A stretch of 64,000 nucleotides of DNA from Armatimonadota bacterium (GTDB lineage: Bacteria > Sysuimicrobiota > Sysuimicrobiia > Sysuimicrobiales > Humicultoraceae): NCBI GenBank assembly GCA_037443365.1, contig JBBIOM010000007.1:19303-83302 (forward strand), in the 5' to 3' direction. Both the position numbers and the translations under genes were made by a program. Below the pieces are notes generated by a model, which searched no databases, was not told where the DNA came from, and saw nothing but the letters and a program-made list of their open reading frames with translations. Positions 3,578 to 63,637 of the stretch are shown in pieces. Positions within the stretch are counted from its first letter, which is position 1. Every line of letters starts with the position of its first letter.

Positions 3578-5515
3578 ATGCAGGTCGCCCTGGCCGGCAA
3601 CCCCAACGTCGGCAAGTCCACGGTCTTCAACCTGCTGACCGGCTTCGGCGCGGCCACCGCGAACTACCCGGGCACGACCGTCGAGGTCACCGTGGCCGCC
3701 GCGCGCATCAACGGGAGCCGCGTGACCATCCTCGACCTGCCGGGCACGTACGCCCTCACGGGACACACAGAGGATCAGCAGGCGGCTCGGCGCGCCCTCC
3801 TGGAGGAGCGTCCCGACGCCGTTGTGGCGATCCTTGATGCCACCAATCTGGCGCGCAACCTGTACCTGGTCCTGCAGCTTGTGGATCTGGGGTTCCCGGT
3901 TGTGGTGGCGCTGAACCTCACGGATGAGGCAGAGCGGCGGGGGATTCACATTGACGCGGCTCGCCTGGGAGCACTGCTGGGGGTTCCTGTGGTTCCCACG
4001 GTCGCCACGCGGCGCCACGGGATGTCCGACCTCATAGCCGAGGCCATGCGCCAGGGAAGGCCGTCCGCGCAGCCCAGGCACAGGTACTGCGCGGAGATCG
4101 AGGACATCGCCGCACGGGTCGCGGCGCTCCTGGAAGGACACGTTCTGCCGGCGCGCGGGCGCGCGCTGCTGCTCCTTGAGGAGGGTGACGCTTCCGGGTT
4201 GCCCCCTGGGGTGATCACACCAGGGGCCGCCGCGGAGGCCGCGGCGATTGCCCGCGCGGTGAGCGCTCAGGGCGGGGAGGCCCTGGCGCTGGCGATCGCG
4301 CGCGAGCGGCACCTGGCGGCCGAGCGCATCGCGCACGAGGCGACACTGCGTTCAGGCCAGGCGCAGCGGCTGCACCTCTGGCGCCTGGCCACGCGGCCTG
4401 CAACCGGCGTGCCCCTGCTCCTCGCGGTGCTGGGCGCGGTGTTCGCGTGCCTGTTCTGGGGCGGGGGCGTGCTGGCCGGATTCGTGGATGCCCTCTGGGT
4501 GCGCACCGCCTCGCCCGCCATCGCCACGCTCTCCGCCTGGGCCCTGGGAGACGGCGTGCTCACGCGCATCGTGCACTGGGGCCTGGATGCGGGCCTGCTG
4601 GCCGTGCTCACCGTGGGCATCCCCTATGTGTTGACGTTCTATCTGCTGCTCTCGATCCTGGAGGACAGCGGGTACCTCAACGTTGCCGCGGTGCTGACCG
4701 ACCGGTTGATGGGCCGCCTTGGCCTGAACGGCAGGGCCGCGATCCCCCTGGTGGCGGGCGCCGGCTGCAGCGTGCCGGCGATGCTCGGGTTGCGGGTGCT
4801 GCGCAGCGAGCGCGAGCGACTCATCGGCGCCACGCTCGTGGCCTTGCTGCCGTGCAGCGCGCGTACGGCCGTGATCATGGGCGCGGTCGCCTTCCTGGGC
4901 GGCTGGCGCGCGGCGCTGCTGCTCTACCTGACCGTGGGGGTTCTCATCCTGGCGACGGGCTGGGGGCTCAACCGCCTGGTGCCTGGCCGGGCGCCGGACC
5001 TGCTCATGGAGGTCTTCCCGTTTCGCTGGCCGATGCCGCAGGGCGTGCTGCGCAAGGCGTGGTCGCGGGCCCGCGAGTTCGTCACCGTGGCCGTTCCGTT
5101 CGTTTTGGTCGGGAGCCTCCTGCTGGGCGCGCTGTACGAGACGGGCCTGATCCGTCTAGCCGAGCGGCCGCTGTCCCCGATCGTGGAGGGCTGGCTCGGC
5201 CTGCCGCCGGTGGCCGGGCTCACGCTGATCTTCGCGGTGCTGCGCAAGGAGCTCGCGCTGCAACTGCTCATCGCGCTCGCCGTCGTGCAGTACGGCAGCA
5301 GCGCGAGCAGCCTGTCGGCGTTCATGACGCCCAACCAGGTGTTCACCTATGCGCTCGTGAACACGATATACATTCCCTGCGTGGCGACGATGGCAGTACT
5401 GGCGAGGATCCTGGGCTGGCGGCGGGCCGCGGCGATCTCCGTGTTCACGATCGTGCTGGCGCTTGCCGTCGGGGGGCTGGCCACGCGGCTGCTGGCTCTC
5501 TTGGGATTCGGATAG
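3578..5515 (+). CDS. feoB: Ferrous iron transporter FeoB (G-domain plus permease)
   Basis: It begins MQVALAGNPNVGKSTVFNLLTG (G1 motif), has DLPGTY (G3), and continues into a long polytopic membrane domain. I chose ATG 3578 inside ORF 3527..5515. Confidence 0.92.
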   Translation: MQVALAGNPNVGKSTVFNLLTGFGAATANYPGTTVEVTVAAARINGSRVTILDLPGTYALTGHTEDQQAARRALLEERPDAVVAILDATNLARNLYLVLQLVDLGFPVVVALNLTDEAERRGIHIDAARLGALLGVPVVPTVATRRHGMSDLIAEAMRQGRPSAQPRHRYCAEIEDIAARVAALLEGHVLPARGRALLLLEEGDASGLPPGVITPGAAAEAAAIARAVSAQGGEALALAIARERHLAAERIAHEATLRSGQAQRLHLWRLATRPATGVPLLLAVLGAVFACLFWGGGVLAGFVDALWVRTASPAIATLSAWALGDGVLTRIVHWGLDAGLLAVLTVGIPYVLTFYLLLSILEDSGYLNVAAVLTDRLMGRLGLNGRAAIPLVAGAGCSVPAMLGLRVLRSERERLIGATLVALLPCSARTAVIMGAVAFLGGWRAALLLYLTVGVLILATGWGLNRLVPGRAPDLLMEVFPFRWPMPQGVLRKAWSRAREFVTVAVPFVLVGSLLLGALYETGLIRLAERPLSPIVEGWLGLPPVAGLTLIFAVLRKELALQLLIALAVVQYGSSASSLSAFMTPNQVFTYALVNTIYIPCVATMAVLARILGWRRAAAISVFTIVLALAVGGLATRLLALLGFG

Positions 5516-6948: not shown

Positions 6949-7025
6949 CGGGGCGTAGCGCAGCTTGGCAGCGCGTCTGGTTTGGGACCAGAAGGTCGGC
7001 GGTTCGAGTCCGCCCGCCCCGACCA
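6949..7025 (+). tRNA. tRNA-Pro (anticodon TGG)
   Basis: It folds by hand as a 77-nt cloverleaf: acceptor CGGGGCG/CGCCCCG, D arm GCGC..GCGC, anticodon stem TCTGG/CCAGA with loop TTTGGGA, T arm GGCGG-TTCGAGT-CCGCC, discriminator A and an encoded CCA. Confidence 0.93.
6981..7025 (+). repeat. attL-like copy of a 45-bp direct repeat (the 3' part of tRNA-Pro)
   Basis: TTTGGGACCAGAAGGTCGGCGGTTCGAGTCCGCCCGCCCCGACCA recurs at 8448-8492 with a single mismatch (44/45). Confidence 0.8.
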
Positions 7026-17776: not shown

Positions 17777-17852
17777 GCGCCTGTAGCTCAGCGGATAGAG
17801 CGGCTGCCTTCTAAGCAGCGGGCCGGGGGTTCGAGTCCCTCCAGGCGCGCCA
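17777..17852 (+). tRNA. tRNA-Arg (anticodon TCT)
   Basis: A 76-nt cloverleaf: acceptor GCGCCTG/CAGGCGC, D arm GCTC-AGCGGATA-GAGC, anticodon stem GCTGC/GCAGC with loop CTTCTAA, T arm GGGGG-TTCGAGT-CCCTC and an encoded CCA. A TGcTATACT extended -10-like element lies at 17755-17763. Confidence 0.92.
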
Positions 17853-29039: not shown

Positions 29040-29118
29040 GGTGGCCGTAGCTCAGCCTGGTTAGAGCGCCTGGCTGTGGCCCAGGAGGGCGCGGGTTCGA
29101 ATCCCGTCGGTCACCCCA
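29040..29118 (+). tRNA. tRNA-His (anticodon GTG)
   Basis: The cloverleaf has the His-specific extra 5' G(-1) opposite discriminator C. Acceptor GTGGCCG/CGGTCAC, anticodon stem CCTGG/CCAGG with loop CTGTGGC, T arm GCGGG-TTCGAAT-CCCGT and an encoded CCA. Confidence 0.92.
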
Positions 29119-44705: not shown

Positions 44706-46361
44706 GTGCGCGGAACGCGCGCATGCCTGCTGGAGCCGGAGATGAGAAGCGAGGGCAGGGTGGAATGGTGGCCCCTTCACGTGCGCGCGCTGATCGCGCT
44801 CTTCGGCCTTTCCGTTGTCCTTGTCGGCGTGCCTGCCGGGACCACGGTCAAGTCGCCGCTCACCCTGGCAGCGCTGCTTGTATTGCTGGTCGCCGCGGGC
44901 CTGCCCGGCGCCCTGACGCCTGCCCGTACCGGCGAGTTCCCCCTGGCCCGGCACAGCGGGGTGGCGCTGGAGCTGCTCATTGTGTCCTTCATCGTGTTCG
45001 AGACCGGCGGCGCCACCAGCTTCTTCTACTTCCTGTACGTGCCGGCGCTGATGCTGGCCACGCCTGGGCGCGGGATCGCCATGGGCGCGGTAACTGGCGC
45101 GGCATCCGCGGTCGGCTACGCTGTCGCAGCGGCCGCGCAGGGGGCAGTCGGGACGGTTGTGCTCCCGCGCGCGGCGCTCCTGATCCTGGCCGGGGTTCTG
45201 CTCGGGCTGATCGAGGAACGCCGGCGCGCGAGCGCCGCGCCGCTCGCCCGGGGCTACGAGATGCTTGCGCGCGAGGTCAACGCGGCCGCCGAGCAGCGCG
45301 CGGCCCTGGCGTCAATGGCGCCGCTGGATCTGGCCGGGCGCGCCAGGCAGTTCCTCGAGCGGGCGCTCCGCCTGGCGGATGCGCAGTGGGGCCTTGTGGC
45401 CATGCTGGATGACGACGGGCGTCCGGTCGTGGAAGCCCGCACCGGAACCGATGGGAGGCCCCGGCCCGCAGGCGTTTCCCTCGCGTTGGGCGGTGCGCTG
45501 GCCACCGCGCTCAGGTCAGGCGCTTCCCAGATGGTTCTGGACGCGGACAAGGACGCGGACTGGGTCAGCGTCTTCGGCGAGGATCCCGCGCGCTGCGCGG
45601 TCGTGATCCCGCTCTCGGCGCAGGGCGTACCGTTCGGCGCCCTCGTCCTGGCGCGCGATGGGCCCGGGCCGCTCTCCGACGAGCAGATGGCGGCCGCGCG
45701 AGCCCTGACCGAGATGACGGCCCCCCTGCTGAGGGACGCCCGGGCAGTGGCGCAGTCCAGCGAGTTCCTGCTGAACACGGTGAAGGCGCTGGCCGCGGCC
45801 CTGGAGGCCAAGGACCCCTACACGCTCGGCCACTCGCAGCGCGTTGCGACCTGCGCCGTCGCGATCGCCTCCGACCTGGGGCTTCCCGCGGACGAGATAG
45901 ACCGCATCCGCTGGGCGAGTCTCCTGCACGATATCGGGAAGATCGCGATCCCGGAGCACGTCCTGCGCAAACGCGGCCCCCTGAGCGATGAGGAGCGGGC
46001 GCTGATGAACCAGCACCCGGAGCGCGGGGCCAGCATCATGCGCGACGTGACGCTGTTCAGGCCGCTCGCCGACGACATCCGCTCCCACCAGGAGGCCTAC
46101 GACGGGAGCGGATACCCGGACGGCCTTGTCGGAAACGAGATTCCACTGGGCGCGCGCATCATCCGCGTCGGCGATACCTTTGACGCGGTGACCTCAAACC
46201 GCTCCTACCGGCCGGGCCGTACTGTGGAGCAGGCGATGGCCGAACTCAGCCGAGAGGCCGGTACCACGCTCGATCCGGCGCTGGTGGACGTGTTCCTCCG
46301 CATTCTGCGAGAGAAGCCGCCCTTTGAGATCCAGCTCCGGTTGTGGAGGGAGCGGTCGTAG
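44706..46361 (+). CDS. Membrane-anchored GAF plus HD-GYP domain protein (c-di-GMP phosphodiesterase type)
   Basis: It has N-terminal hydrophobic segments and a central GAF-like region. The HD-GYP region reads HSQRVATCAVAIASDLGL...LLHDIGKIAIPEHVLRKRGPLSDEERALMNQHPERG...HQEAYDGSGYPDGL. The start is uncertain: 44706 or ATG 44742. Confidence 0.88.
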   Translation: MRGTRACLLEPEMRSEGRVEWWPLHVRALIALFGLSVVLVGVPAGTTVKSPLTLAALLVLLVAAGLPGALTPARTGEFPLARHSGVALELLIVSFIVFETGGATSFFYFLYVPALMLATPGRGIAMGAVTGAASAVGYAVAAAAQGAVGTVVLPRAALLILAGVLLGLIEERRRASAAPLARGYEMLAREVNAAAEQRAALASMAPLDLAGRARQFLERALRLADAQWGLVAMLDDDGRPVVEARTGTDGRPRPAGVSLALGGALATALRSGASQMVLDADKDADWVSVFGEDPARCAVVIPLSAQGVPFGALVLARDGPGPLSDEQMAAARALTEMTAPLLRDARAVAQSSEFLLNTVKALAAALEAKDPYTLGHSQRVATCAVAIASDLGLPADEIDRIRWASLLHDIGKIAIPEHVLRKRGPLSDEERALMNQHPERGASIMRDVTLFRPLADDIRSHQEAYDGSGYPDGLVGNEIPLGARIIRVGDTFDAVTSNRSYRPGRTVEQAMAELSREAGTTLDPALVDVFLRILREKPPFEIQLRLWRERS

Positions 46362-48840: not shown

Positions 48841-48938
48841 GGCAACCCTCGAACAGGCAAACCCGCCGCGAGGCGGGGACGCAAAGCCAACGGGGCCTGG
48901 AGGCCCGAGTCCGCGGGCTCCGGGCCGGCCGGGTTGCC
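48841..48938 (+). promoter_or_regulatory. c-di-GMP-I (GEMM-I) riboswitch-like aptamer, copy A
   Basis: GGCAACCC-tcgaaca-GGCAAACC-CGCC-GCGA-GGCG-GGGACGCAAAGCC-aaCGGGGCC-tgga-GGCCCG...GCCGGGTTGCC. It has the two conserved GEMM-I cores, a GNRA-capped hairpin between them and an outer 8-bp helix (48841-48848 with 48931-48938). An SD-like AAGGGGAG follows 2 nt later. Confidence 0.78.
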
Positions 48939-49674
48939 GAAGGGGAGACGCTTGGAATCCCTTCGTGTCCAGAGCTTTGAGGCGATTGGGGCTGGGGCGA
49001 TCGTCTTCGCGGGTTTGTGCGGAGACGAGGTGGACCTGGAGCGGCTTGTGGCGCACCTGGCCGCGCGCGGCTTTGACGGCGGCGTGCTCGTGGGCGATGA
49101 GGCGACCGAGGGAGTGCTCTGGTTCCGGGACGGCGCGCCGCGCGAGGCATGGGTGTTCGAGGCGGGCGACATCCCGGAGATGCTGCCCGATGGCCCTGGT
49201 CGCGAGCGCCTGAGTGCACTGGCCTCGCGAGGCTGCCGGATCAGCGTCGTGGCGTGCGAGCCGCCTGACGAGCCGCCGGAACTGGCGGACTGGTCCGACG
49301 CACAGCCCCCCGAGTACGGGACGGCCGCTGAGCCGCCTGCCCACCCGTGGCCCGCGATCCTCGAACGCATGGCGGTGCGCATCGCGCGCAGCCGCGGGCC
49401 CCGCCTGGCGAGCCATTTCGCGGCGGCCCTGGTCAGGGCGCTGGAGCGTCACGGCGGCGGCATGGACGGCGAGCGCGTGCACGCCCCGCAACTGCCCGAG
49501 TCGACTTGGCGCGCGATAGTGGAGGTGGCATGCGCGCCGATAGTGACGATCGCCGGGCGCGCCTTCGCCGACCGGACCATAGCAGCCTGCGAACGCGACG
49601 TGCGCGATGCCGAAGGGATGCCAGAAGCGGTGGCCGAAGGCGAGGGGCCGGCCGAAGGCGAGGGGCCGGCATGA
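48934..49674 (+). CDS. Hypothetical protein (no recognisable family; DUF4388-like flavour in the N-terminal part)
   Basis: 246-aa ORF. TTG 48934 lies inside the riboswitch outer helix, so in-frame TTG 48952, downstream of AAGGGGAG, may be the real start. It reads LERLVAHLAARGFDGGVLVGDEATEGVLWFRDGAPREAWV, and the C-terminus carries a duplicated EGEGPA. Confidence 0.55.
   Translation: MPKGRRLESLRVQSFEAIGAGAIVFAGLCGDEVDLERLVAHLAARGFDGGVLVGDEATEGVLWFRDGAPREAWVFEAGDIPEMLPDGPGRERLSALASRGCRISVVACEPPDEPPELADWSDAQPPEYGTAAEPPAHPWPAILERMAVRIARSRGPRLASHFAAALVRALERHGGGMDGERVHAPQLPESTWRAIVEVACAPIVTIAGRAFADRTIAACERDVRDAEGMPEAVAEGEGPAEGEGPA
49633..49668 (+). repeat. Perfect 2 x 18-bp tandem duplication inside the CDS
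   Basis: GCCGAAGGCGAGGGGCCG occurs twice in a row, encoding AEGEGP AEGEGP at the C-terminus of the 48934 gene. Confidence 0.9.
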
Positions 49675-50423
49675 GGCCGCCCCCCTGGCTGCCCAAGGCG
49701 GTCATCGGCCTCATGGCAGGGGCGGCCGGCATCACCTACGGCCTGGACGGCGGCGGCGCTCACGTGCAGGCGGCGCGGGCCGCGGTCGGGTCAACGCTGC
49801 AACTCCTGGCGCCGCTCGTGGCCGGGTTCGGGTGCCTGATGGCGGCTGCGGCCTATGCGCGTGGTGACCGCGAGCGCGCGGTGTGGGTGATCGCGGCGTG
49901 GGCCACGCTGGCCTGGGCCGCCGGGCGTGCCATCTCCGCGGCCGGACGGTGGGGCGGGGGCGGCGCGGCGTACTCCCCGTCGGCGGCCGACGCGTTCTAT
50001 GTCGCCTTCTTCGTGCTGCTCAGTGCCGCCGTTTGGATGGAGGCCCGGCTTGTCTGGCCCGTGCTGGAACCGCGGATCCGCAGGAATCTGGTCGTGTACG
50101 GCGGTCTGATATGGGGGTCTGTGGTTGTCGCGACGCTGGCATTGCTCGCGCGCGGCGAGGCCCCGGTCTTCCAGAAGATGCTGGCCGCCTTCTACCCTGC
50201 GGCCGCGATGCTGCTCGTACCTGCCTGCCTGGTTCCTGCCGCCGGCTTCAGTGGAGGCACCTCCGCCTACACGTGGCTCACCCTGGCGATGGCTGCGTTG
50301 TGCATGGCCGGGGCGAGTCTCCTGCATCCGATCGTGCACAGGGCCGACGCGCTGTGGGTGGCGGGCTTCATCTTCCTGGCGGCCGGTGCCTTCTGGCAGC
50401 GCGCCGCGCTGGAGGAGGTCTAG
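49671..50423 (+). CDS. Polytopic integral membrane protein, unknown family
   Basis: ATG 49671 overlaps the upstream stop (ATGA). It is about 250 aa with roughly 6-7 hydrophobic segments and has no soluble domain. Confidence 0.6.
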   Translation: MRPPPWLPKAVIGLMAGAAGITYGLDGGGAHVQAARAAVGSTLQLLAPLVAGFGCLMAAAAYARGDRERAVWVIAAWATLAWAAGRAISAAGRWGGGGAAYSPSAADAFYVAFFVLLSAAVWMEARLVWPVLEPRIRRNLVVYGGLIWGSVVVATLALLARGEAPVFQKMLAAFYPAAAMLLVPACLVPAAGFSGGTSAYTWLTLAMAALCMAGASLLHPIVHRADALWVAGFIFLAAGAFWQRAALEEV

Positions 50424-50428
50424 CTGCC

Positions 50429-51169
50429 GTGGCCGCCGCTGGTGTGGCCGGTCTGCTGCACTACGGGTGGACACGGGGCTTTGCCGCCGTGGTCGAGGCG
50501 CCTGCCCGGCGAACCGCGGCGGTCTTCGGTCCTGCTGGCTGGGTGCAGGGCGATCCCTCGTCCGTCCTGCCCGCCGGCGCACCGCCTGGCGCAGAGGTGG
50601 TGCGCCTGGCGCTCACCGAGCGGCTGGCCGATCAGATAGCCGGCCTGCAGTTCTCCATTGGCGGTCTGCACACCGAGTTCGTGCGGCTGCGCTCCTTGTT
50701 GGGACGGCTGTGCGCGCAGGGCGCCGACAGCGTGGTGCTCGTCCTCGGCGAGAGGCCCGCGGTCTTCGCGGTGGCAGACGGCGAGATCACCTCGGCCGGG
50801 CTGGATGCGACACCCCCCGAGGAAGCCCGAGGATGGATCGTGGTCTTCTCCGGCAAGGTCAGCCTGCCCGCGGCCGAGGCCCCGGGTGCTGCCGATGAGA
50901 CCTACTTCGTTCCCAGCAACAGCCGGGACTCACTGCCCGAGGAGGTGGCGACCGCCATCCTGAAGGTGGCCGGGCCCGCGGGCGAACGCGTGCCCGGTCT
51001 GCTCGACGGCACGCGCACGATTGGGGTGGTCGCAGGCATGGCCGGGCTGAGCGCCGGACAGGCGCGCGCAGCCGTGGGCGTGCTGGTCGCGCACCGGCTG
51101 GCCTTCAGGTGCGTCAGCCGCCCCAAGGCCGGCTCGCGTACGAAGCAGGGCAGTTCAGCGCAACCCTGA
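50429..51169 (+). CDS. Hypothetical protein, unknown family
   Basis: GTG 50429 lies 10 nt after GGAGGAGG. It reads LRSLLGRLCAQGADSVVLVLGERPAVFAVADGEITSAG, similar in pattern to the 48934 product. The C-terminal part LLDGTRTIGVVAGMAGLSAGQARAAVGVLVAHRL looks winged-helix-like. Confidence 0.5.
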   Translation: MAAAGVAGLLHYGWTRGFAAVVEAPARRTAAVFGPAGWVQGDPSSVLPAGAPPGAEVVRLALTERLADQIAGLQFSIGGLHTEFVRLRSLLGRLCAQGADSVVLVLGERPAVFAVADGEITSAGLDATPPEEARGWIVVFSGKVSLPAAEAPGAADETYFVPSNSRDSLPEEVATAILKVAGPAGERVPGLLDGTRTIGVVAGMAGLSAGQARAAVGVLVAHRLAFRCVSRPKAGSRTKQGSSAQP

Positions 51170-51250
51170 GGGAGGCCTTGCGCAAATGCCCGTGACGCGC
51201 TATCATTTGCTTCCGCCGGGTCCGGCCACCGGACGCGGAAACCGAATATG

Positions 51251-51336
51251 AACCCCGAAAAGGGCAAACCCATCGTGAGGTGGGGGCGCAAAGCCTCGGG
51301 ACCAGCAGGTGTGGTCAGCCGGGCTGCCGGAGGTTG
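51251..51336 (+). promoter_or_regulatory. c-di-GMP-I (GEMM-I) riboswitch-like aptamer, copy B
   Basis: aaccccgaaaaGGGCAAACC-CATC-GTGA-GGTG-GGGGCGCAAAGCC-tCGGGACC...CAGCCGGGCTGCCGGAGGTT. The architecture matches copy A, with one deviation in the second core (GGGGCGC instead of GGGACGC). A hairpin follows (51344-51351 with 51362-51369, containing CCUCCC) that could act as a weak terminator or as an anti-SD against AGGAGG at 51381-51386. Confidence 0.68.
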
Positions 51337-51394
51337 ACATACCGTCCTCCCAAGGCAGCCCGGGAGGGCTCGTTGTATTCAGGAGGCGTAGCAC

Positions 51395-52210
51395 ATGGCG
51401 GCAAGACCGCCGCAACGCCAGGCAGTGGTGCCGGAGCCCCGCGGCGCAGAGGCCTCCGGCCCCGACGACGCCGACCTGGCGCTTGAGGAATACGCCGCCA
51501 CGCGCAGCCCGCAGGCGCAGGAGCGCGTCGTCGCCGCCTGCACGCCACTGGTGCGGCGCATCGCCGCCGAGTTCGCGTACTCGGGAGTCCCGACCGAGGA
51601 TCTGATCCAGGTGGGCTACATCGGGCTGCTCAACGCCATCAACGGGTTCGACGCGGGCCGCGGCGCGAAGTTCGCCACCTACGCCGGCTACCTCGTACGC
51701 GGCGAGATCCGTCACTACCTGCGCGACCAGCGGGACACGATCCGCAGACCGCGCTGGTTTCAGAGGCTCAACACCCGCATCGAGGAGACCATCAGCGCGC
51801 ACGTCAGCGAGACCGGGCGCTTCCCCGGTCTCGACGTCCTGGCGCGCGCTCTCAACGTGGAGGAGGAGGGGCTCCTGGAGGTCCTGCGCGCAAGGGAGAT
51901 CCTTCGCACGGTCTCCATCGAGGCCGACGACGATGGGGCCGACCTCCGCGTTGATCGCGACCGGATACGGCACCGCACGCACGTCAGCTTCCAGCTTCCG
52001 ATCGAGGACCGCGTCACGCTGATGGAGGCGCTGGAGTCGCTCACCGCGCTGCAGCGCAAGGTCGTTTACTACCTTTTCTACACCGACCTTACACAGATGG
52101 AGGCCGCCAAACAGATCGGCATCTCGCAGAAGCACGTGTCGCGCGTGCTTGCCGCCGCGCTGAACAAGCTGCGCGGCGCGCTGGGCGCGCCGTCGCACGG
52201 GGCTCTGTAG
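51395..52210 (+). CDS. Group-3 sigma-70 family factor (SigB/SigF/SigG-like)
   Basis: Region 2 reads DLIQVGYIGLLNAINGFDAGRGAKFATYAGYLVRGEIRHYLRD. Region 4 reads LQRKVVYYLFYTDLTQMEAAKQIGISQKHVSRVLAAALNKLR. AGGAGG lies 9 nt upstream of the ATG. Confidence 0.9.
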   Translation: MAARPPQRQAVVPEPRGAEASGPDDADLALEEYAATRSPQAQERVVAACTPLVRRIAAEFAYSGVPTEDLIQVGYIGLLNAINGFDAGRGAKFATYAGYLVRGEIRHYLRDQRDTIRRPRWFQRLNTRIEETISAHVSETGRFPGLDVLARALNVEEEGLLEVLRAREILRTVSIEADDDGADLRVDRDRIRHRTHVSFQLPIEDRVTLMEALESLTALQRKVVYYLFYTDLTQMEAAKQIGISQKHVSRVLAAALNKLRGALGAPSHGAL

Positions 52211-52229
52211 GATAGGGGAGGAATCCGGG

Positions 52230-52586
52230 ATGTCGCAGTTGAAGGACTTGCTCGCCGAACTGACCAGGGTTGACGGCGTGGTGGCGGCCATGATCGTGGG
52301 CCGTGACGGGTTCGTCGTGGAGGGCCTGACGACGGAGGAGCGGGTGGACCTCGAGGCGGTCGGCGCGGTCGTGGCCAGCAACATAGCGGTGGCCGACTCG
52401 ATGGGCAAGGAGATGGGCCGCGGCTCGCTGCGCACGATGCTGCTGGAGTACGACGAGGGCCCGGTGGCCGTCGGGCCGGCCGGGGCCGACGCCGTCATCG
52501 TCGTGGTGGGTACGCGGCTGGCCAACCTGGGGCGCGTCCGCCTCGAGATGCGGCGCAACAGCCAACTCGCGGCCGCGCTGGTCTAG
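52230..52586 (+). CDS. Roadblock/LC7 (MglB-like) domain protein
   Basis: 118 aa. It reads LAELTRVDGVVAAMIVGRDGFVVEGL...LRTMLLEYDEGPVAVGPAGADAVIVVVGTRLANLGRVRLEM and begins 19 nt after the sigma gene. Confidence 0.85.
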   Translation: MSQLKDLLAELTRVDGVVAAMIVGRDGFVVEGLTTEERVDLEAVGAVVASNIAVADSMGKEMGRGSLRTMLLEYDEGPVAVGPAGADAVIVVVGTRLANLGRVRLEMRRNSQLAAALV

Positions 52587-52681: not shown

Positions 52682-53125
52682 ATGACGATGCGGCGTCAGT
52701 CGCGGCCCGGCCGAGCCAGGGGCGAGGCAGGGTTCACATACCTTGAGTTGCTCGTTGCCCTCTCGCTCTTCGCCGCGTTCTCGGTGATCCTTCTCCAGAC
52801 ATTCATCGTCGGCATGGCGCATGCCGGCCGGGCCAACGACCGCGCGGCCGCCACTACCCTCGCCGTTCAGGTGATGGAGCAGATCCGCGCCAGCGTTAAC
52901 CCGGTGGAGATGGTGGGCTTCACGGACCTTGCGCGCTCGCCGCTCCCCCTGCCGGATCCCTACACCGGCGTGACCAACCCGACCCCCCACACGTTCCAGG
53001 TGGCCGTGGACGTCACCCACGATACGAACCTGCGCCTCACCACCGCCACCGTCCAGATCTACAGGCCCGCCGATCTGAACGGCGCGCCGTTTGTCACGCT
53101 CACGACGGTGCTGGATGACAAGTGA
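52682..53125 (+). CDS. Prepilin-type N-terminal cleavage/methylation domain protein (pilin or PilV/GspI-like minor pilin)
   Basis: A charged leader is followed by G|FTYLELLVALSLFAAFSVILL (Glu at +5). The protein is 147 aa. Confidence 0.8.
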   Translation: MTMRRQSRPGRARGEAGFTYLELLVALSLFAAFSVILLQTFIVGMAHAGRANDRAAATTLAVQVMEQIRASVNPVEMVGFTDLARSPLPLPDPYTGVTNPTPHTFQVAVDVTHDTNLRLTTATVQIYRPADLNGAPFVTLTTVLDDK

Positions 53126-53702
53126 GATTCGCGCCGCGCCAGAGTTGCCGCCCCTGCAAGGAGACCGTGGCGTCACCCTGATCGAGCTGGTCGTGGCGCT
53201 GGGCCTGCTGATGCTCGTTCTGGGGAGCATCTACGCGATCGTGGCCGTCGGGGGCAGGTCCGCCCGCACAACCAACGACTTCCTCCAGGCCCAGGCGCAC
53301 GTGCGCACGGCCCTCGACGTCATGGTGGACGAGATGCGCTGGGCAGAGGCCGTCACATGCGCGTCGCAGACGGCGGTCACGCTGGCCGTGCCGCAGGACA
53401 CGCCCTTCTCTCAGACGAGTCCCTACCGGGTGACCTTCGCGCACGACGCCAGCGCCGCGACGCTCGTGCGCAGGCAGGACGATGCCGGAAGCGGGTGCCC
53501 GAGTTCGGGCGTAGGCAGGCCACTGGCGTACTTCATTGGCGCAGGCGGCCTGGCCTTCGAGTACTTCGACGCCAACGGCGACACGCTGGGAACGACGCCC
53601 GGCGACCTGACGCCCATCGCTCGCGTCAGGATCAGGGTGACCGTCACGCGGGATCACGTGAGCCGCACCTTCGCAGGTGATGCCGCACTGCGCGCCCGCT
53701 AG
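53115..53702 (+). CDS. Prepilin-type protein (PilW/GspJ-like minor pilin)
   Basis: ATG 53115 overlaps the upstream gene by 11 nt. It reads G|VTLIELVVALGLLMLVLGSIYAIV (Glu +5), with DVMVDEMRWAE typical of PilW-like proteins. Confidence 0.75.
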   Translation: MTSEIRAAPELPPLQGDRGVTLIELVVALGLLMLVLGSIYAIVAVGGRSARTTNDFLQAQAHVRTALDVMVDEMRWAEAVTCASQTAVTLAVPQDTPFSQTSPYRVTFAHDASAATLVRRQDDAGSGCPSSGVGRPLAYFIGAGGLAFEYFDANGDTLGTTPGDLTPIARVRIRVTVTRDHVSRTFAGDAALRAR

Positions 53703-53725
53703 GCGCGGGCAAGGGGTGAGAAGAG

Positions 53726-55816
53726 ATGCTGCGCCTGACTAGATGCCAACAGGGGATGGCGCTCGTCGCGGTACTGGCCGTCATCCTCATCCTGTCGCTT
53801 CTGGGCGCCCTCATTCTCTATCTGAGCGGGAAGGAGATGGGACTGAGCGCGCTGCGGGTCATCGGCGCGCAGAGCATGTACATCGCCGAGGGGGGCGCCT
53901 ATTCGGGCCGCGCCGCGCTCATGGCGCTCATGGGCGCCGATCCGATCGGGCAGGTCACCGTGGACCCGTCCCTGGACAGCACGACCCTGCTCGTCTGGTA
54001 TGGAGGCGCGACCGGGGAGGTGGGCCTCCAGAACTCGCTTCGCATCATTGACTTCCTTATCCTCGACGGCCGGCGCTTCACCCTCAACGCGACCCCGTCC
54101 ACGGACTCGCTCGTCTTCCACGTCAACTGGGGCCTGCCCGAGCCGCACCGGAAGCTGCAGGCGGCCGCTGGGCTACCGCCTTCCAACCCGCTGGGGGAAG
54201 GGAGCCACAGGACTACGGTCACGCTCAGGCGGCGGCTCGCATCGCCCGAGAGCGCCCCGAACGAGCCGGCCCGGTACATCCAGCGTATGGGCGGGGCCGG
54301 GGGCGACCACGAGTACGAGTTCTACTACTCCTACGAGATCACGAGCGACGGGCGCGTGAACCCGCAGGCCAGGCGCAGGATCGCGCTGCGCGGCGACTTC
54401 AGCATCTACCTGCGGCGGGATACCTTCGCCAAGTACGCGCTGTTCTCGCACGTGCACACCGGACCCGCGGGCGAGGCGCTCTGGTTCGCCGATATGTCCA
54501 TGTACGACGGGCCCGTGCACACGAACACCGAGTTCCGCTTCGCCTACTTCCCGAAGTTCGGCACCCCTGACAGCGGGATACCCTGCCGGGAGGCGAACGC
54601 CAGGACCACGCGCCTGACCAGCGCCTGGCGGACGGCCTGGTTCTTCAACCGCGGCAGCCCGCGTCAGATAGAGGCCAACGAGAACGTGGTCAGCGGACAG
54701 CGCCGCGACGCACCGGTGTTGCCCGACTGCGACACCAACAGCAGCAACGATCACGACAACGCCCCGGCCGACTTCACGCGCGGGGTGGCCACGATCCCCA
54801 TTCCCTCCAACCCGTTCAGCCAGAAGGGCGTGACCGTGGGACGCGACCCGTCGGATACCAGCGCGGTCCCCAACCGGCTCATACGGGAGGCGGTCCCCGA
54901 ACTCCCGGACAACTCGAGCGCGGTTCCCTCCGGGATATACGTACCGGTTCGAGACGACAACGCCAACGGCATCTCCGACCCCGACGAACCCCTCTCAGGC
55001 GGCATCCTCGTGCAGGGCGATCTGACAAGCTTGGTGCTCGGCATGACCGACAGCGGCGCGTCGCCGGGCGCCTGCAGCCAGAGCGCGGGGTCGCCGGGCG
55101 GCTGCGCGCGTTACACCCTGGTCCAGGGGACTCAAACCGTCACGGTGGTCGTGGACCGCGTGACGCAGCGCACCACGGTCACCAACACGGCCTGGCCCTC
55201 GGGCAACCAGACGCGGACGTTCGCCGGCGTTCCCAAGGGATGGCAGGGCCTGGGCAACGCGAACGCGGCCATCATCTACGTCGAGGGAGCGATCCTCTCG
55301 CTGCACGGCACGCTCGAGGAGAAGGAGCAGACCACGATCGTTGCCTCCGGGCGCATTGACATCACCAACCACATCCGCTACGAGGCGCCTCCTGTGGTCA
55401 CCAATCCCGAGCACAACCCGATCAACCTGCTCGGGATATACTCGCCCAACAACGACGTGCGCTTCGTCACCAACCCCAACGACCCGAGCACGCGCGACCT
55501 CGACATCCACGCCGTGATCATGGCGGGCAACCTGGCGGACGGGTACAACAGCCGCGTGTTCAACGCGACGTGGAACGACAATCCCCCGCGGGGCGAGATA
55601 CGCCTGATCGGCGGGCTGATCCAGGAGTACCTGGGCGTCTTCGGGGTCATGAACACCGCCGGGCAGCTCATCAGGGGCTACGGCTCGTACTTCAGGTACG
55701 ACCGCAGGATGAACCGCGGGTTCTCGCCGCCCTACTTCCCGACGATGACCCTGTATCAGGTGGAGGCGCGCAACTTCGCCGGTCGGCGGCCCACGTGGCG
55801 CGAGGGGTCCCCTTGA
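53726..55816 (+). CDS. Large PilX-N-terminal-like pilus protein (possible tip or adhesin component)
   Basis: It begins QQG|MALVAVLAVILILSLLGALILYL (PilX_N-like, no Glu +5), followed by about 650 aa of Gly/Asn/Thr/Pro-rich, beta-rich sequence with no further motif I can name. Confidence 0.6.
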   Translation: MLRLTRCQQGMALVAVLAVILILSLLGALILYLSGKEMGLSALRVIGAQSMYIAEGGAYSGRAALMALMGADPIGQVTVDPSLDSTTLLVWYGGATGEVGLQNSLRIIDFLILDGRRFTLNATPSTDSLVFHVNWGLPEPHRKLQAAAGLPPSNPLGEGSHRTTVTLRRRLASPESAPNEPARYIQRMGGAGGDHEYEFYYSYEITSDGRVNPQARRRIALRGDFSIYLRRDTFAKYALFSHVHTGPAGEALWFADMSMYDGPVHTNTEFRFAYFPKFGTPDSGIPCREANARTTRLTSAWRTAWFFNRGSPRQIEANENVVSGQRRDAPVLPDCDTNSSNDHDNAPADFTRGVATIPIPSNPFSQKGVTVGRDPSDTSAVPNRLIREAVPELPDNSSAVPSGIYVPVRDDNANGISDPDEPLSGGILVQGDLTSLVLGMTDSGASPGACSQSAGSPGGCARYTLVQGTQTVTVVVDRVTQRTTVTNTAWPSGNQTRTFAGVPKGWQGLGNANAAIIYVEGAILSLHGTLEEKEQTTIVASGRIDITNHIRYEAPPVVTNPEHNPINLLGIYSPNNDVRFVTNPNDPSTRDLDIHAVIMAGNLADGYNSRVFNATWNDNPPRGEIRLIGGLIQEYLGVFGVMNTAGQLIRGYGSYFRYDRRMNRGFSPPYFPTMTLYQVEARNFAGRRPTWREGSP

Positions 55817-56251: not shown

Positions 56252-58460
<2,209 letters not shown>

Positions 58461-58465
<5 letters not shown>

Positions 58466-58540
58466 CCCAGCCAGCCGGGGGCTTCCACCACCGGCCCTGT
58501 GGCTTTGCGTCCCCGGATCGCTCCGGGTTTGCCCTTACGG
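58461..58540 (-). promoter_or_regulatory. c-di-GMP-I (GEMM-I) riboswitch-like aptamer, copy C
   Basis: The minus strand reads ccgtaaGGGCAAACC-CGGA-GCGA-TCCG-GGGACGCAAAGCC-aCAGGGCCGG...GGCTGGGTTGCC. The 3' conserved GGGTTGCC (58468-58461) overlaps the first candidate start codon (TTG 58465) of the TPR-PilB gene. Confidence 0.76.
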
Positions 58541-58658
58541 GACTAGTGCACTAAACTTCTGGGTATACTCTAACTTGCCCCTGCAGAGATTGCACCGAGG
58601 GTATCACGGAGCGCGGCTTGGCGCAAGGCCATATTGAGAGGAGTTCCGGGGAGGAATC

Positions 58659-60511: not shown

Positions 60512-60750
60512 AGGTGGAGCTGGACCGCGAGCAGGTCGTGATCTTCACGCCGTCACACAGGATCGAGGGCGAGCTGCACCTGCCCTCGAGCGCCCGGCTC
60601 TCCGACCGGCTGAACCAGGCCAAGGACTTCCTGGCCATTACCTCGGCGCGCGTCTTCACCCTGGACGACCGTCCGCTCTACGAGGCCGGCGTCGTGTTTC
60701 TGCACAAGTCCTACATCGTGATGCTTATGGAGCGTCATGAGGCCATCTAG
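60508..60750 (+). CDS. 80-aa hypothetical protein, unknown family
   Basis: It reads MKVELDREQVVIFTPSHRIEGELHLPSSARLSDRLNQAKDFLAITSARVFTLDDRPLYEAGVVFLHKSYIVMLMERHEAI. It has an ATGA overlap with merR-like and a 14-nt overlap with pilB. The pattern looks beta-rich. Confidence 0.5.
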   Translation: MKVELDREQVVIFTPSHRIEGELHLPSSARLSDRLNQAKDFLAITSARVFTLDDRPLYEAGVVFLHKSYIVMLMERHEAI

Positions 60751-62446
60751 GAGCCCGACCTCGCGTCGCCGGGTGCGGCTCGGCGAGATCCTGGTGGAGG
60801 CCGGGCTGATCACGAGCGCCCAGCTCGAGAAGGCGCTGTCGGCACAGAACGCCAGCGGCGACCGCCTGGGCAGGGTGCTGGTGAGCCAGGGGCTGACCAC
60901 GCAGGAGGCCATCAGCAAGGCCGTGGCCAGCCAGATGGGAATCGAGTACGTCAACGTGCAGTCCGTAGGGATCCCCGAGGAGGTGCTCACGGCCGTTCCC
61001 GAGTGGCTGATACGGCGCCACCAGGTCATCCCGCTGCGCAGGGAAGGGAACACGCTCGTCGTGGGGATGGTGGACCCCCTCGACGTGGTGGCGCTCGATA
61101 CGGTCCGGCGCGTCGCCAAGCTCGACCTGGTACCGGCCGCGATCACGCCCGAGGGGTTCCAGCACGCCGTCAACCAGTACCCGGCCCTGGAGGGCACCCT
61201 GGACCAGGTCATCCAGGAGATCCGCCCCGCGGACGTGGGCGAGGAGGAGCCGGGCCTCGATCGGCTGCGCGAGATAGTCGAGGACGCCCCGGTCGTGCGC
61301 CTGGTGAACCTGATGCTGGTTCAGGCGGTGCGCCAGGGCGCCAGCGATGTGCACGTGGAGCCGCAGGAGGACCGCGTTCGCATACGCTACCGCATTGACG
61401 GCACGCTCTACGGCGTCATGACCGCGCCCAAGCACGTGCAGGCCGCGACCACGAGCCGCATCAAGATCATGGCCAACATGAACATCGCCGAGCGCCGCGC
61501 GCCGCAGGACGGGCGGATCGAACTGCGCGTGGACAACCGCGAGATTGACCTGCGCGTCAGCAGCGTCCCCACCGTGTTCGGCGAGAAGGTGGTCATGCGG
61601 ATCCTCGACAAGCGGGCGGCGCTGGTCGGCGTGGACAGGCTCGGCCTGTTGGGGCCGGACCTGCCGCGATTCGAGTCGCTGATCGCCAAGCCTTACGGCA
61701 TCATCCTCATCACCGGCCCGACCGGCAGCGGCAAGACCACCAGCCTGTACGCCATCCTCAACCGGCTGAACAAGACCGACGTCAACATAATCACGGTCGA
61801 GGACCCGGTGGAGTACCAGCTCGCCGGCATCAGCCAGGTCCAGATCAACCCCAAGGCCGGTCTGACCTTCGCCACCGGTTTGCGGTCTTTCCTGAGGCAG
61901 GACCCGGATATTATCATGGTGGGGGAGATACGCGACGAGGAGACCGCGCGCATCGCGATCCACGCCGCGCTGACCGGGCACTTGGTCCTCTCGACGCTGC
62001 ACACCAACGACGCGCCCGGCGCCGTGGCTCGCCTCGCGGACATGGGCGTGGAGCCGTTCCTGGTCTCCTCTTCGGTGATCGGCGTGGTCGCGCAGCGCCT
62101 GGTGCGCGTGCTCTGCCCGCAGTGCCGCGAGGCGTACACGCCTCCGGTCGAGGTGCTGGAGCGCTACCGGCTCATAGGCCCCGGCGACCCGCCGCCCGTG
62201 ATCTACCGTCCGCGGGGCTGCGACCGGTGCAACCACATCGGATACAAGGGGCGCATCGGGCTCTTCGAGATCATGGTCATGGACGATGAAGTGCGCGCGC
62301 TCGTCGTGCGGGAGTCCTCGGCGGATGTGCTCAAGGCCGCCGCCGTCGCCGCCGGGATGCGCACGCTGCACCTGGACGGCGTGGCCAAGGTGCTGGCCGG
62401 GACGACGTCGCTCGAAGAACTGCTCCGAGTCGTTTTCGTCGAATAG
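60737..62446 (+). CDS. pilB: Type IV pilus assembly ATPase PilB (GspE family) with intact MshEN-type motifs
   Basis: It has tandem RLGEILVEAGLITSAQLEKALSAQ and RLGRVLVSQGLTTQEAISKAVASQ, a T2SSE_N region and ILITGPTGSGKTTSL (Walker A). It also has FLRQDPDIIMVGEIRD and a tetracysteine motif (CPQCR...CDRCNHIGY). Confidence 0.93.
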   Translation: MRPSRSPTSRRRVRLGEILVEAGLITSAQLEKALSAQNASGDRLGRVLVSQGLTTQEAISKAVASQMGIEYVNVQSVGIPEEVLTAVPEWLIRRHQVIPLRREGNTLVVGMVDPLDVVALDTVRRVAKLDLVPAAITPEGFQHAVNQYPALEGTLDQVIQEIRPADVGEEEPGLDRLREIVEDAPVVRLVNLMLVQAVRQGASDVHVEPQEDRVRIRYRIDGTLYGVMTAPKHVQAATTSRIKIMANMNIAERRAPQDGRIELRVDNREIDLRVSSVPTVFGEKVVMRILDKRAALVGVDRLGLLGPDLPRFESLIAKPYGIILITGPTGSGKTTSLYAILNRLNKTDVNIITVEDPVEYQLAGISQVQINPKAGLTFATGLRSFLRQDPDIIMVGEIRDEETARIAIHAALTGHLVLSTLHTNDAPGAVARLADMGVEPFLVSSSVIGVVAQRLVRVLCPQCREAYTPPVEVLERYRLIGPGDPPPVIYRPRGCDRCNHIGYKGRIGLFEIMVMDDEVRALVVRESSADVLKAAAVAAGMRTLHLDGVAKVLAGTTSLEELLRVVFVE

Positions 62447-62455
62447 GGGGCTGCC

Positions 62456-63637
62456 ATGCACATCGAAGACCTGCTGCGAGAGGTCGTCGCGGCCCAGGCG
62501 TCGGACCTGCACCTGACGAGTGGGATCAAGCCCACGATGCGGCTTTGGGGCCGGCTGACGCCGATGGAGCACCACGAGGTCCTCTCGGCCGAGGACACCT
62601 TCCAGCTCGGCTACAGCATGCTCAACACCTTCCAGAAGCAGAAGTTCGAGAAGTTCTGGGAACTCGATCTTTCCTACGGCGTGCCCGGGCTGGGACGCTT
62701 CCGGGTGAACATCTACCGCCAGCGCGGGGCGCTGGGGATCGCGCTCCGGGTCATCCCCATGTCGATCCCGACGCTCGAGGCGCTCAACCTGCCCACCGTC
62801 CTGAGGGAACTCACGCGCAAGCCCCGGGGGCTGGTGCTGGTGACCGGGCCCACCGGACAGGGCAAGAGCACGACGCTGGCCTCGATGATAAGCTTCATCA
62901 ACTACGAGCGCAGCGCCCACATCGTGACGGTGGAGGACCCGATCGAGTACCTGCACCAGCACGGCAAGAGCATCATCAACCAGCGCGAGCTGGGGTTCGA
63001 CACGCAGTCGTTCCCGGCGGCGCTGCGCGCGGTGCTGCGCGAGGACCCCAACGTCGTGCTGATCGGCGAGATGCGCGACCTCGAGACGATCTCGGCGGCG
63101 CTCACGATCGCCGAGACCGGCCACCTGGTCTTCGCCACCCTGCACACGGCCAACGCCGCGCAGTCGATAGACCGCATCATTGACGTCTTTCCGCCCTACC
63201 AGCAGCAGCAGATCCGCATCCAGATCTCCATGGTGCTCGAGGCCGTGGTGTCGCAGCAACTGCTCCCCAACGCGAAGTACAAGGGGAATGCTGACGCACA
63301 GCCGGCGGCGCGCAAGCGCCTGGGGGGCGCCGTCGGGCAGTCCTGGCCGAGCCTGGACGAGATAGGGCGGGTGCCCGCGGTCGAGATCATGCTGGCCACG
63401 CCCGCCATCCGCAACCTGGTACGCGAGGCCAAGACGCACCAGATCGAGACGGCAATACAGACGGGCGGGCAGTACGGCATGCAGACGATGGACCAATCGC
63501 TGCGCGATCTCGTCCTGCGCAAGATGGTGAGGTTGGACGACGCGCTCAGCCGGGCCATCCGCCCCGATGAACTGCGCAAGATACTGTACGAGGCCGGCGT
63601 TGACGTCGAGCGCGCCGCTCGTAGCGCGAGGGGGTAG
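62456..63637 (+). CDS. pilT: Twitching-motility retraction ATPase PilT (with an internal insertion)
   Basis: It has ASDLHLTSGIKPTMRLWG, GLVLVTGPTGQGKSTTL, VLREDPNVVLIGEMRD, GHLVFATLHT and AIRNLVRE. It is 393 aa, with about 26 extra residues between QQLLP and GRVPAVEIM. Confidence 0.92.
   Translation: MHIEDLLREVVAAQASDLHLTSGIKPTMRLWGRLTPMEHHEVLSAEDTFQLGYSMLNTFQKQKFEKFWELDLSYGVPGLGRFRVNIYRQRGALGIALRVIPMSIPTLEALNLPTVLRELTRKPRGLVLVTGPTGQGKSTTLASMISFINYERSAHIVTVEDPIEYLHQHGKSIINQRELGFDTQSFPAALRAVLREDPNVVLIGEMRDLETISAALTIAETGHLVFATLHTANAAQSIDRIIDVFPPYQQQQIRIQISMVLEAVVSQQLLPNAKYKGNADAQPAARKRLGGAVGQSWPSLDEIGRVPAVEIMLATPAIRNLVREAKTHQIETAIQTGGQYGMQTMDQSLRDLVLRKMVRLDDALSRAIRPDELRKILYEAGVDVERAARSARG

Follow-up and report, generated by a model that had tools for sequence, protein, structure and literature searches.

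A 225-nucleotide (nt) gap lies between two genes in the 64-kb window analysed here, by which we mean the whole 64,000-nt stretch of contig JBBIOM010000007.1 from a bacterium of the Armatimonadota. The gap runs from the upstream stop codon (TGA, 51167-51169) to the start codon (ATG 51395) of a gene for an alternative sigma factor. It holds, in this order, a promoter-like element, a small hairpin, a predicted class-I cyclic di-GMP (c-di-GMP) aptamer of the GEMM-I type, a terminator-like hairpin with a U-rich tail and a Shine-Dalgarno (SD) sequence (Table 1). This aptamer is one of three in the window and is called copy B; copies A and C precede other genes. We consider it probable that the leader is a class-I c-di-GMP riboswitch, and more precisely an OFF switch that acts by premature termination of transcription at high c-di-GMP.

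The sigma factor gene and its orthologues

The gene downstream of the leader encodes a member of the sigma-70 family. Its regions 2 and 4 score above the Pfam cut-offs, and region 3, at 20.0 bits, stays under its cut-off of 25.3. The nearest NCBIfam model is that of the SigB/F/G sigma factors (TIGR02980), whose score of 172.6 bits stays below the cut-off of 234.35. An earlier note, drawn from the letters of the DNA, had named the product a SigB/F/G-type sigma factor; the family and the closest model are as it said, but the protein falls short of that class, and these matches are best summed up by calling it a divergent, SigB/F/G-like sigma factor of group 3. In all syntenic orthologues the sigma gene is directly followed by one for a Roadblock/LC7 (MglB-like) protein. 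In the window the two are separated by 19 nt, a distance that points to co-transcription, and the Roadblock/LC7 gene is probably the second gene of the transcription unit.

Genome and metagenome scans by exact peptide patterns yielded three close loci, and most orthologues were obtained through exact-protein look-ups. The sigma protein has many homologues in metagenome-assembled genomes that carry the label Armatimonadota in their source records, among them orthologues at 60-83% identity. Every contig-placed homologue in this range has the same gene order, with three genes of about 250 codons, the leader, the sigma gene and the Roadblock/LC7 gene. The aptamer is present in 13/13 non-redundant syntenic orthologue leaders, at 63.5-72.2 bits, except that the aptamer of locus L031 (L031:2729-2803) scores best on another model of the family, RF01051 (59.7 bits against a threshold of 35), and not on RF03167. 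The order of promoter, aptamer, hairpin, sigma gene and Roadblock/MglB-like gene is kept in every syntenic orthologue. An Rfam scan of the leaders of paralogues and homologues at 52-57% identity, which stand in unrelated contexts, found no riboswitch.

Table 1. Features of the sigma factor leader and of its surroundings in the window
Feature	Position	Strand	Details
Sigma-70-type promoter-like element	51178-51206	+	-35 TTGCGC (51178-51183), 17-nt spacer, -10 TATCAT (51201-51206)
Small GC-rich hairpin at the predicted 5' transcript end	51216-51238	+	CCG-GUCCGG-CCA-CCGGAC-CGG; minimum-free-energy fold
c-di-GMP-I aptamer, copy B (sigma leader)	51254-51332	+	RF03167, 70.0 bits; R1; P1, P2 with GNRA loop GUGA, short P3
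First core	51262-51270	+	GGGCAAACC; read from sequence
P2 hairpin segment	51271-51282	+	CATC-GTGA-GGTG; read from sequence
Second core segment	51283-51295	+	GGGGCGCAAAGCC; read from sequence
3' segment of aptamer	51318-51329	+	GCCGGGCTGCCG; read from sequence
Strand A (antiterminator 5' half)	51319-51333	+	CCGGGCUGCCGGAGG; aptamer 3' strand (P3 3' side, C92, P1 3' side) plus one base
Terminator-like hairpin	51344-51369	+	GUCCUCCC-AA-GG-CAG-CC-C-GGGAGGGC; -14.0 kcal/mol; contains CCUCCC
Strand T (antiterminator 3' half)	51346-51363	+	CCUCC-CAA-GGCAGCCCGG
U-rich tail	51370-51380	+	UCGUUGUAUUC (DNA TCGTTGTATTC); 6 U in 11, weak U tract
SD sequence	51381-51386	+	AGGAGG; 8 nt 5' of ATG 51395; conserved in orthologue alignment
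Sigma-70 family sigma factor, 271 residues	51395-52210	+	Pfam Sigma70_r2, r3, r4
Roadblock/LC7 (MglB-like), 118 residues	52230-52586	+	PF03259, E 4.3e-16; weak MglB NCBIfam match
GAF + HD_5/HD protein, HD-GYP-like	44706-46361	+	about 2.5 kb upstream of copy A
Copy A aptamer	48846-48941	+	RF01051, 51.1 bits
Pseudopilins + DUF4900 protein	52682-55816
TPR-MshEN-T2SSE (PilB-like) ATPase	56252-58465	-	preceded by copy C
Copy C aptamer	58457-58542	-	RF03167, 59.3 bits
Second PilB-like ATPase + PilT-like ATPase	60737-63637

A class-I c-di-GMP aptamer in the leader

The whole window was scanned against Rfam with cmscan. The model RF03167 matches copy B over its full length (model positions 1-80), well above the gathering threshold of 59 bits (E 1.5e-14), and a local cmscan of the aptamer region gave an E value of 9.7e-17 and no other notable match. 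The program shows the best clan model per site, and it is thus through RF03167 that copy B passes a gathering threshold of clan CL00126 (c-di-GMP-I/GEMM-I), on which score its membership of the clan rests. Three members of this clan were found in the window. A covariance model that we built from the orthologous aptamers, called R1, gave 96.2 bits for the same interval, and its matches in the window were confined to the three GEMM-I sites. The earlier note had proposed a GEMM-I aptamer here, to be scored with Infernal, and these matches bear it out; all the sequence features that it listed were located, including the 225-nt gap. It had also held copy B to be the least certain of the three copies, whereas copy B has the top score (70 versus 59.3 and 51.1 bits). 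On its sequence, we take the interval to be a genuine GEMM-I aptamer.

The architecture agrees with that of the Vc2 aptamer of Vibrio cholerae (RF01051). Vc2 numbering was transferred with three anchors, namely the pair C22-G45, the tertiary contact C44-G83 and the junction nucleotides A47-A49 (PMC3764141, PMC11705072). Like Vc2, copy B has three helices around a junction, a GNRA loop on P2, and, according to the cmscan alignment, G20 (51263, model position 10), C44 (51287), A47-A49 (51290-51292, model positions 37-39, AAA), G83 (51318) and C92 (51327, the C of J3-1). Ligand contacts in Vc2 are made by G20, A47, A48 and C92 (PMC3764141), and the importance of the C44-G83 inter-helix tertiary pair has been described (PMC11705072). 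Both partners of the latter, C51287 and G51318, are invariant across the 13 orthologues, in which 97.3% of the pair cells of the aptamer are conserved. The GEMM-I cores GGCAAACC and GACGCAAAGC are present, the sole core deviation being G for A at Vc2 position 43 (51286).

Copy B departs from Vc2 in a short P3 devoid of the 11-nt GAAA receptor, in G43, and in the P2 loop, for which copy B has GUGA and the orthologues have GCAA, GCGA or GUAA; RF03167 fits the shape of copy B better than RF01051 does. The 11-nt tetraloop receptor (CUAAG/UAUG) was sought in P3 of copy B and is absent; the GNRA loop GUGA is present. Members of the GEMM-I family without the tetraloop receptor are known, the receptor being a trait of the common 'type 1' form. 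Its absence does not exclude membership of the family.

The earlier note had suggested that the one-base deviation in the second core might alter affinity or specificity. An effect on specificity is probably not to be expected. Position 43, a site in the P2 internal loop beside C44, is G in 12/13 orthologous leaders. In Vc2 it is outside the ligand contacts and outside the nucleotides conserved in >95% of the Rfam seed (PMC3764141). The same GGGGCGC, with G43, recurs in 6/27 unrelated GEMM-I aptamers, several of which have the classical GAAA loop and receptor; these 27 were collected by two pattern scans of viral contigs and their matches confirmed with our own covariance model. We thus read G43 as a common polymorphism outside the binding pocket, and the canonical pocket nucleotides point to c-di-GMP as the ligand of copy B.

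Two receptor-less aptamers of the G43 type were seen 1.9 kb apart on a 4.6-kb IMG/VR contig classed as viral (L054, 63-65% GC), at L054:1691-1771 (-) and 3597-3677 (-), with R1 scores of 76.7 and 73.3 bits. Each precedes an open reading frame (ORF) on the minus strand.

Promoter and 5' end of the leader

The promoter-like element of the window has counterparts of the form TTGC(R)C-17-TAnnnT in all orthologous leaders, some 40-55 nt upstream of the aptamer. A strict promoter consensus scan of the region did not list the element at 51178-51206. Judging from its position, transcription would start at about 51212-51214. As all leaders keep the element on the 5' side of the aptamer, the transcript very probably includes the aptamer, which bears on the downstream start that the earlier note had named as grounds for rejection. 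The CCGG...CCGG arms of the small hairpin at the predicted 5' end are kept in close orthologues, and the hairpin may stabilise this end.

Other candidate features of the region were considered and set aside. On inspection, neither an extended P1 nor a pseudoknot of the conserved AACCGAAUAUGAAC segment with the linker showed pairing conserved across orthologues. Two long antisense ORFs, 50902-51291 (-) and 51203-52558 (-), were taken as GC-rich artefacts.

The expression platform

The 3' strand of the aptamer and the 5' arm of the terminator-like hairpin can pair with one another, and in the window this pairing and the hairpin are mutually exclusive. Strand A (CCGGGCUGCC GGAGG) is complementary to the 5' arm, the loop and the top of the 3' arm of the hairpin. 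Conversely, strand T comprises most of the terminator 5' arm together with the loop and the two nucleotides that open the 3' arm, and it includes CCUCC (51346-51350), a potential anti-SD sequence. The pairing of 51319-51333 with 51346-51363 is that of the unconstrained minimum-free-energy fold of the window. This antiterminator duplex is the strongest of the set, at -25.7 kcal/mol, a value equalled by 1/200 shuffles. Its register is conserved, with 89.6% of cells paired in nine orthologues compared with 39-64% when the partner is slid, and in L020, L031 and L032 the complementarity is rebuilt from different sequence.

All orthologues have a GC-rich hairpin at this place, with folding energies between -19 and -38 kcal/mol, and a U-rich tail after it. 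In L016 the stem ends in CCCCAGGAGGU and is followed by UUUUUCG, in L017 it ends in GAGAGGACUU followed by AUCUUUUUU, and in L022 it ends in AUUUU; by sequence, these three are predicted to be textbook intrinsic terminators. The tails of L014 and L027 are CGUCGUUUU. In the nine alignable leaders the 12-bp terminator stem is 90.7% paired, and four pairs are changed on both sides. The covariation score of the stem is 0.303 versus 0.213 for shuffles, and 4/500 shuffles reach it. A second clade, made up of L020, L022 and L032, carries in this position a hairpin whose sequence is unrelated. The earlier note had left open whether the CCUCCC hairpin terminates transcription or sequesters the SD sequence. 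The U runs and compensatory changes of the orthologues favour termination, and SD masking is plausible in the window copy only (see below).

The leaders of L020, L022 and L032 have another peculiarity. In each, a spacer of about 130 nt separates the terminator hairpin from the start codon of the sigma gene (L020:2872-3000, L022:2868-3000 and L032:2873-3000), with a stretch of about 50 nt that is almost the same in all three, contains the hairpin GAGCCUGCUGCCCCGACAGGCUC and is absent from the window. This stretch may be a second leader element.

The hairpin of the window differs from those of close orthologues by four substitutions. At alignment columns 34 and 45, U-A has become C-G, both positions changing together; the terminator pair is kept, and the G of column 45 completes a perfect 10-bp antiterminator. 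The other two are G-to-A changes at 51352-51353, which cost the upper end of the terminator two pairs that all close orthologues have. The window terminator is the weakest of the set. Taken together, these predicted foldings suggest that the switch of the window is biased towards read-through.

Proposed mechanism

From the alternative pairings we infer the direction of regulation; termination itself is a prediction. Transcription would begin at the conserved promoter of sigma-70 type, which precedes the aptamer by about 40 nt. With c-di-GMP bound, the aptamer would retain its own 3' strand CCGGGCUGCCGGAG, the terminator hairpin and its U-rich tail would form, and RNA polymerase would stop before the sigma gene. 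At low c-di-GMP, the 3' strand would instead pair with CCUCC...GGCAGCCCGG and remove the 5' arm of the terminator, so that the sigma factor gene and the downstream MglB-like gene would be transcribed. Ligand binding would compete directly with the antiterminator, because binding needs C92 and P1. In the window copy the freed CCUCC could also pair with AGGAGG, and the ligand may thus repress translation as well as transcription.

Several observations weigh against this model. The window terminator is poor, with its low stability (-14 kcal/mol), an internal loop and the interrupted U tract UCGUUGUAUUC; a terminator scan lists just a shorter inner hairpin with this tail, and the region has no clear excess of terminator-like matches over what shuffled sequence yields. 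The U run of close orthologues begins 4-5 nt past the stem. The duplex energy of the antiterminator is in most orthologues no better than that of shuffled GC-rich arms. For them this shuffle test is uninformative because GC-rich arms pair well by chance, and we relied on the conserved register and the slid controls in its place. In most orthologues, too, the thermodynamic minimum is the terminator and not the antiterminator, and the model therefore depends on co-transcriptional kinetics. As to the aptamer, its covariation is sparse, with one compensatory pair among the 13 orthologues, because these are so similar, and G43 together with the missing 11-nt tetraloop receptor could reduce affinity.

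Alternative explanations

The strongest competitor is a switch that is mainly translational in this genome, which we regard as unlikely. The ligand would free CCUCC to mask the SD sequence AGGAGG, and without ligand CCUCC would be held by GGAGG (51329-51333) in the antiterminator, leaving the SD open. The folding of the window copy gives some ground for it. When the aptamer was enforced, the mean unpaired probability of the SD fell from 0.20 to 0.02, and in the minimum-free-energy fold CGUCCUCC, in the CCUCC region, paired with GGAGGCG, the SD segment; moreover, the terminator is weak and its U tract interrupted. However, the SD is mostly paired (0.20) even in the unconstrained window fold, and the orthologues lack the coupling. 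Enforcing the aptamer leaves their SD accessibility unchanged or raises it (unconstrained/enforced values of 0.80/0.81 in L001, 0.80/0.80 in L014 and 0.35/0.84 in L028), and their CCUCY is locked in an 11-14 bp stem. In the clade of L020, L022 and L032 the start codon is about 180 nt past the aptamer (about 130 nt past the hairpin), which rules out SD masking there. SD masking as a conserved mechanism was therefore rejected, accessibility being independent of the aptamer state in orthologues; in the window copy it may form a plausible extra layer on top of termination.

A second set of alternatives concerns the ligand. The orthologous aptamer in L001 (L001:2861-2938, contig CAYLKW010000061.1) carries the equivalent of A20 in AAAAGAGCAAACC, a change typical of the GEMM-Ib aptamers that respond to cyclic GMP-AMP (cGAMP). 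It could reflect ligand re-wiring, promiscuity or an assembly error. Re-wiring at one orthologous locus, with c-di-GMP read through G20 and a cGAMP-type ligand through the A20 of L001, or else a receptor-less G43 clade with shifted affinity or specificity, seems to us improbable. If true, it would mean that the same sigma regulon is coupled to different cyclic dinucleotides in sister lineages.

That copy B is itself a specificity variant, sensing another ligand as a member of the 'GGC' class or 3'3'-cGAMP as a GEMM-Ib aptamer, is very unlikely. The idea draws on the top Rfam model, RF03167, being that of c-di-GMP-I-GGC, on G43 and the missing tetraloop receptor, and on the A20 of the L001 orthologue, the signature of cGAMP-responsive variants (PMC9481103). 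The pocket of copy B speaks otherwise, with A47, G20 and C92 all canonical. The consensus of RF03167 differs from that of RF01051 at a single pocket position (GACGCGAA versus GACGCAAA, model position 37, equivalent to Vc2 A47). The G of RF03167 at this position is absent from copy B, which reads GCGCAAAGCC with A51290, and A is found in 13/13 orthologues. The letters 'GGC' presumably stand for Vc2 positions 20, 47 and 92, judging by a comparison of the two consensus sequences. The c-di-GMP-I-GGC class was reportedly defined by Weinberg and coworkers in PNAS in 2017. In our literature search no mention of an A47G change turned up. By its pocket nucleotides copy B would be a canonical 'GAC' aptamer, and its best match to RF03167 probably reflects shape (the short P3 without receptor and the paired P1) and not the pocket.

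The L031 orthologue of the same leader, which is best on RF01051, likewise argues against a variant. As the orthologues flip between RF03167 and RF01051 despite A47 in all of them, the RF03167 label is no reliable sign of a variant pocket; for annotation, the caution is that the name of the Rfam model should not be taken as evidence on the ligand. The GEMM-Ib signature, A at Vc2 position 20, is missing from copy B (G51263); this position is G in 12/13 orthologues and A in L001 only. G43, for its part, occurs in 6/27 unrelated aptamers and is not among the >95%-conserved nucleotides.

We give hardly any credence to a decayed expression platform behind an intact aptamer, with an element that no longer regulates, or to an ON switch, for although the G-to-A changes at 51352-51353 break two terminator pairs and the U tract is interrupted, the changes at columns 34 and 45 are coordinated in a way that keeps the terminator pair and perfects the 10-bp antiterminator, as in tuning and not in decay, the aptamer is without damaging substitutions, and no alternative pairing gives a terminator or an SD mask specific to the ligand-free state.

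Relation to known c-di-GMP riboswitches

The closest relative of the proposed termination switch is Cd1 of Clostridioides difficile, an OFF switch in which strands A and T form the antiterminator and T and H the terminator; the latter is the thermodynamic end state, and the antiterminator is transient during transcription (PMC9262584). Cd1 controls the flgB operon, sigD included (PMC6366702). As in Cd1, a class-I aptamer is followed here by a terminator whose 5' arm alternatively pairs with the aptamer 3' strand, which predicts an OFF switch, and in most orthologues it is again the terminator that forms the thermodynamic end state, so that the antiterminator would have to act transiently. The output again includes an alternative sigma factor, with a regulon tied to surface or motility organelles. 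The two systems differ in that the sigma gene is here the first gene after the riboswitch, whereas sigD is deep in a long flagellar operon. The factor itself resembles SigB/F/G and is not of the FliA/SigD type, the neighbourhood is one of type IV pilus genes and not flagellar, and the host belongs to a GC-rich uncultured Armatimonadota-like lineage in which the regulation is a prediction only.

With RF03167, copy B shares the best score, the short P3 and the paired P1, and differs from it by A instead of G at model position 37. The GEMM-Ib aptamers, such as that of pilM in Geobacter, have the same fold, belong to the same clan and are likewise linked to pilus-related genes (PMC9262584). They have A20, and pilM is under an ON switch, whereas copy B has G20.

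The switch is of a known kind that Rfam annotation can discover, and neither G43 nor the 'GGC' label signals new chemistry. Its interest lies in its position. A c-di-GMP riboswitch directly before an alternative sigma gene would let the messenger control a set of promoters without a protein receptor. The notion put forward in the earlier note, that control of a sigma factor by a riboswitch would turn the signal of a small molecule into a whole regulon, is sound, although it has a precedent in Cd1 and sigD (PMC6366702). This was the sole comparable case found in our literature search, and it is an indirect one, with sigD controlled within the flgB operon. The arrangement is conserved across an uncultured clade of the Armatimonadota, a phylum with almost no genetics, and it offers a testable entry to c-di-GMP signalling and surface behaviour in these bacteria.

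Genomic neighbourhood

By their domain matches, the surroundings of the sigma gene are a type IV pilus region that includes c-di-GMP components of its own, among them PilB-like ATPases with c-di-GMP-binding MshEN domains; this context fits c-di-GMP signalling. Upstream of copy A lies a gene whose product, with its GAF and HD_5/HD domains, is likely a c-di-GMP phosphodiesterase of the HD-GYP type (44706-46361). An HD_5/HD gene was also seen near the orthologous locus in L031. Beyond the Roadblock/LC7 gene, the orthologous loci contain pseudopilin and DUF4900 genes or a convergent gene for a PilB-like ATPase.

Copy A, which has a long P3 insertion, precedes the three genes of about 250 codons (about 48934-51169, +). 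No Pfam or NCBIfam family matched these three genes at E <=1, and all orthologous loci have them in synteny with the sigma gene. Copy C ends directly at in-frame GTG start candidates (58456 or 58450) of the TPR-MshEN-T2SSE ATPase gene. There is no terminator between the two, and the 3' strand of P1 overlaps the ribosome-binding region. The ATPase gene may thus be under c-di-GMP control at the level of RNA as well as of protein, the latter through its MshEN domain. Elsewhere in the window, three tRNA genes were found at 6949-7022, 17777-17849 and 29041-29115 (+), with scores of 65.8-69.9 bits.

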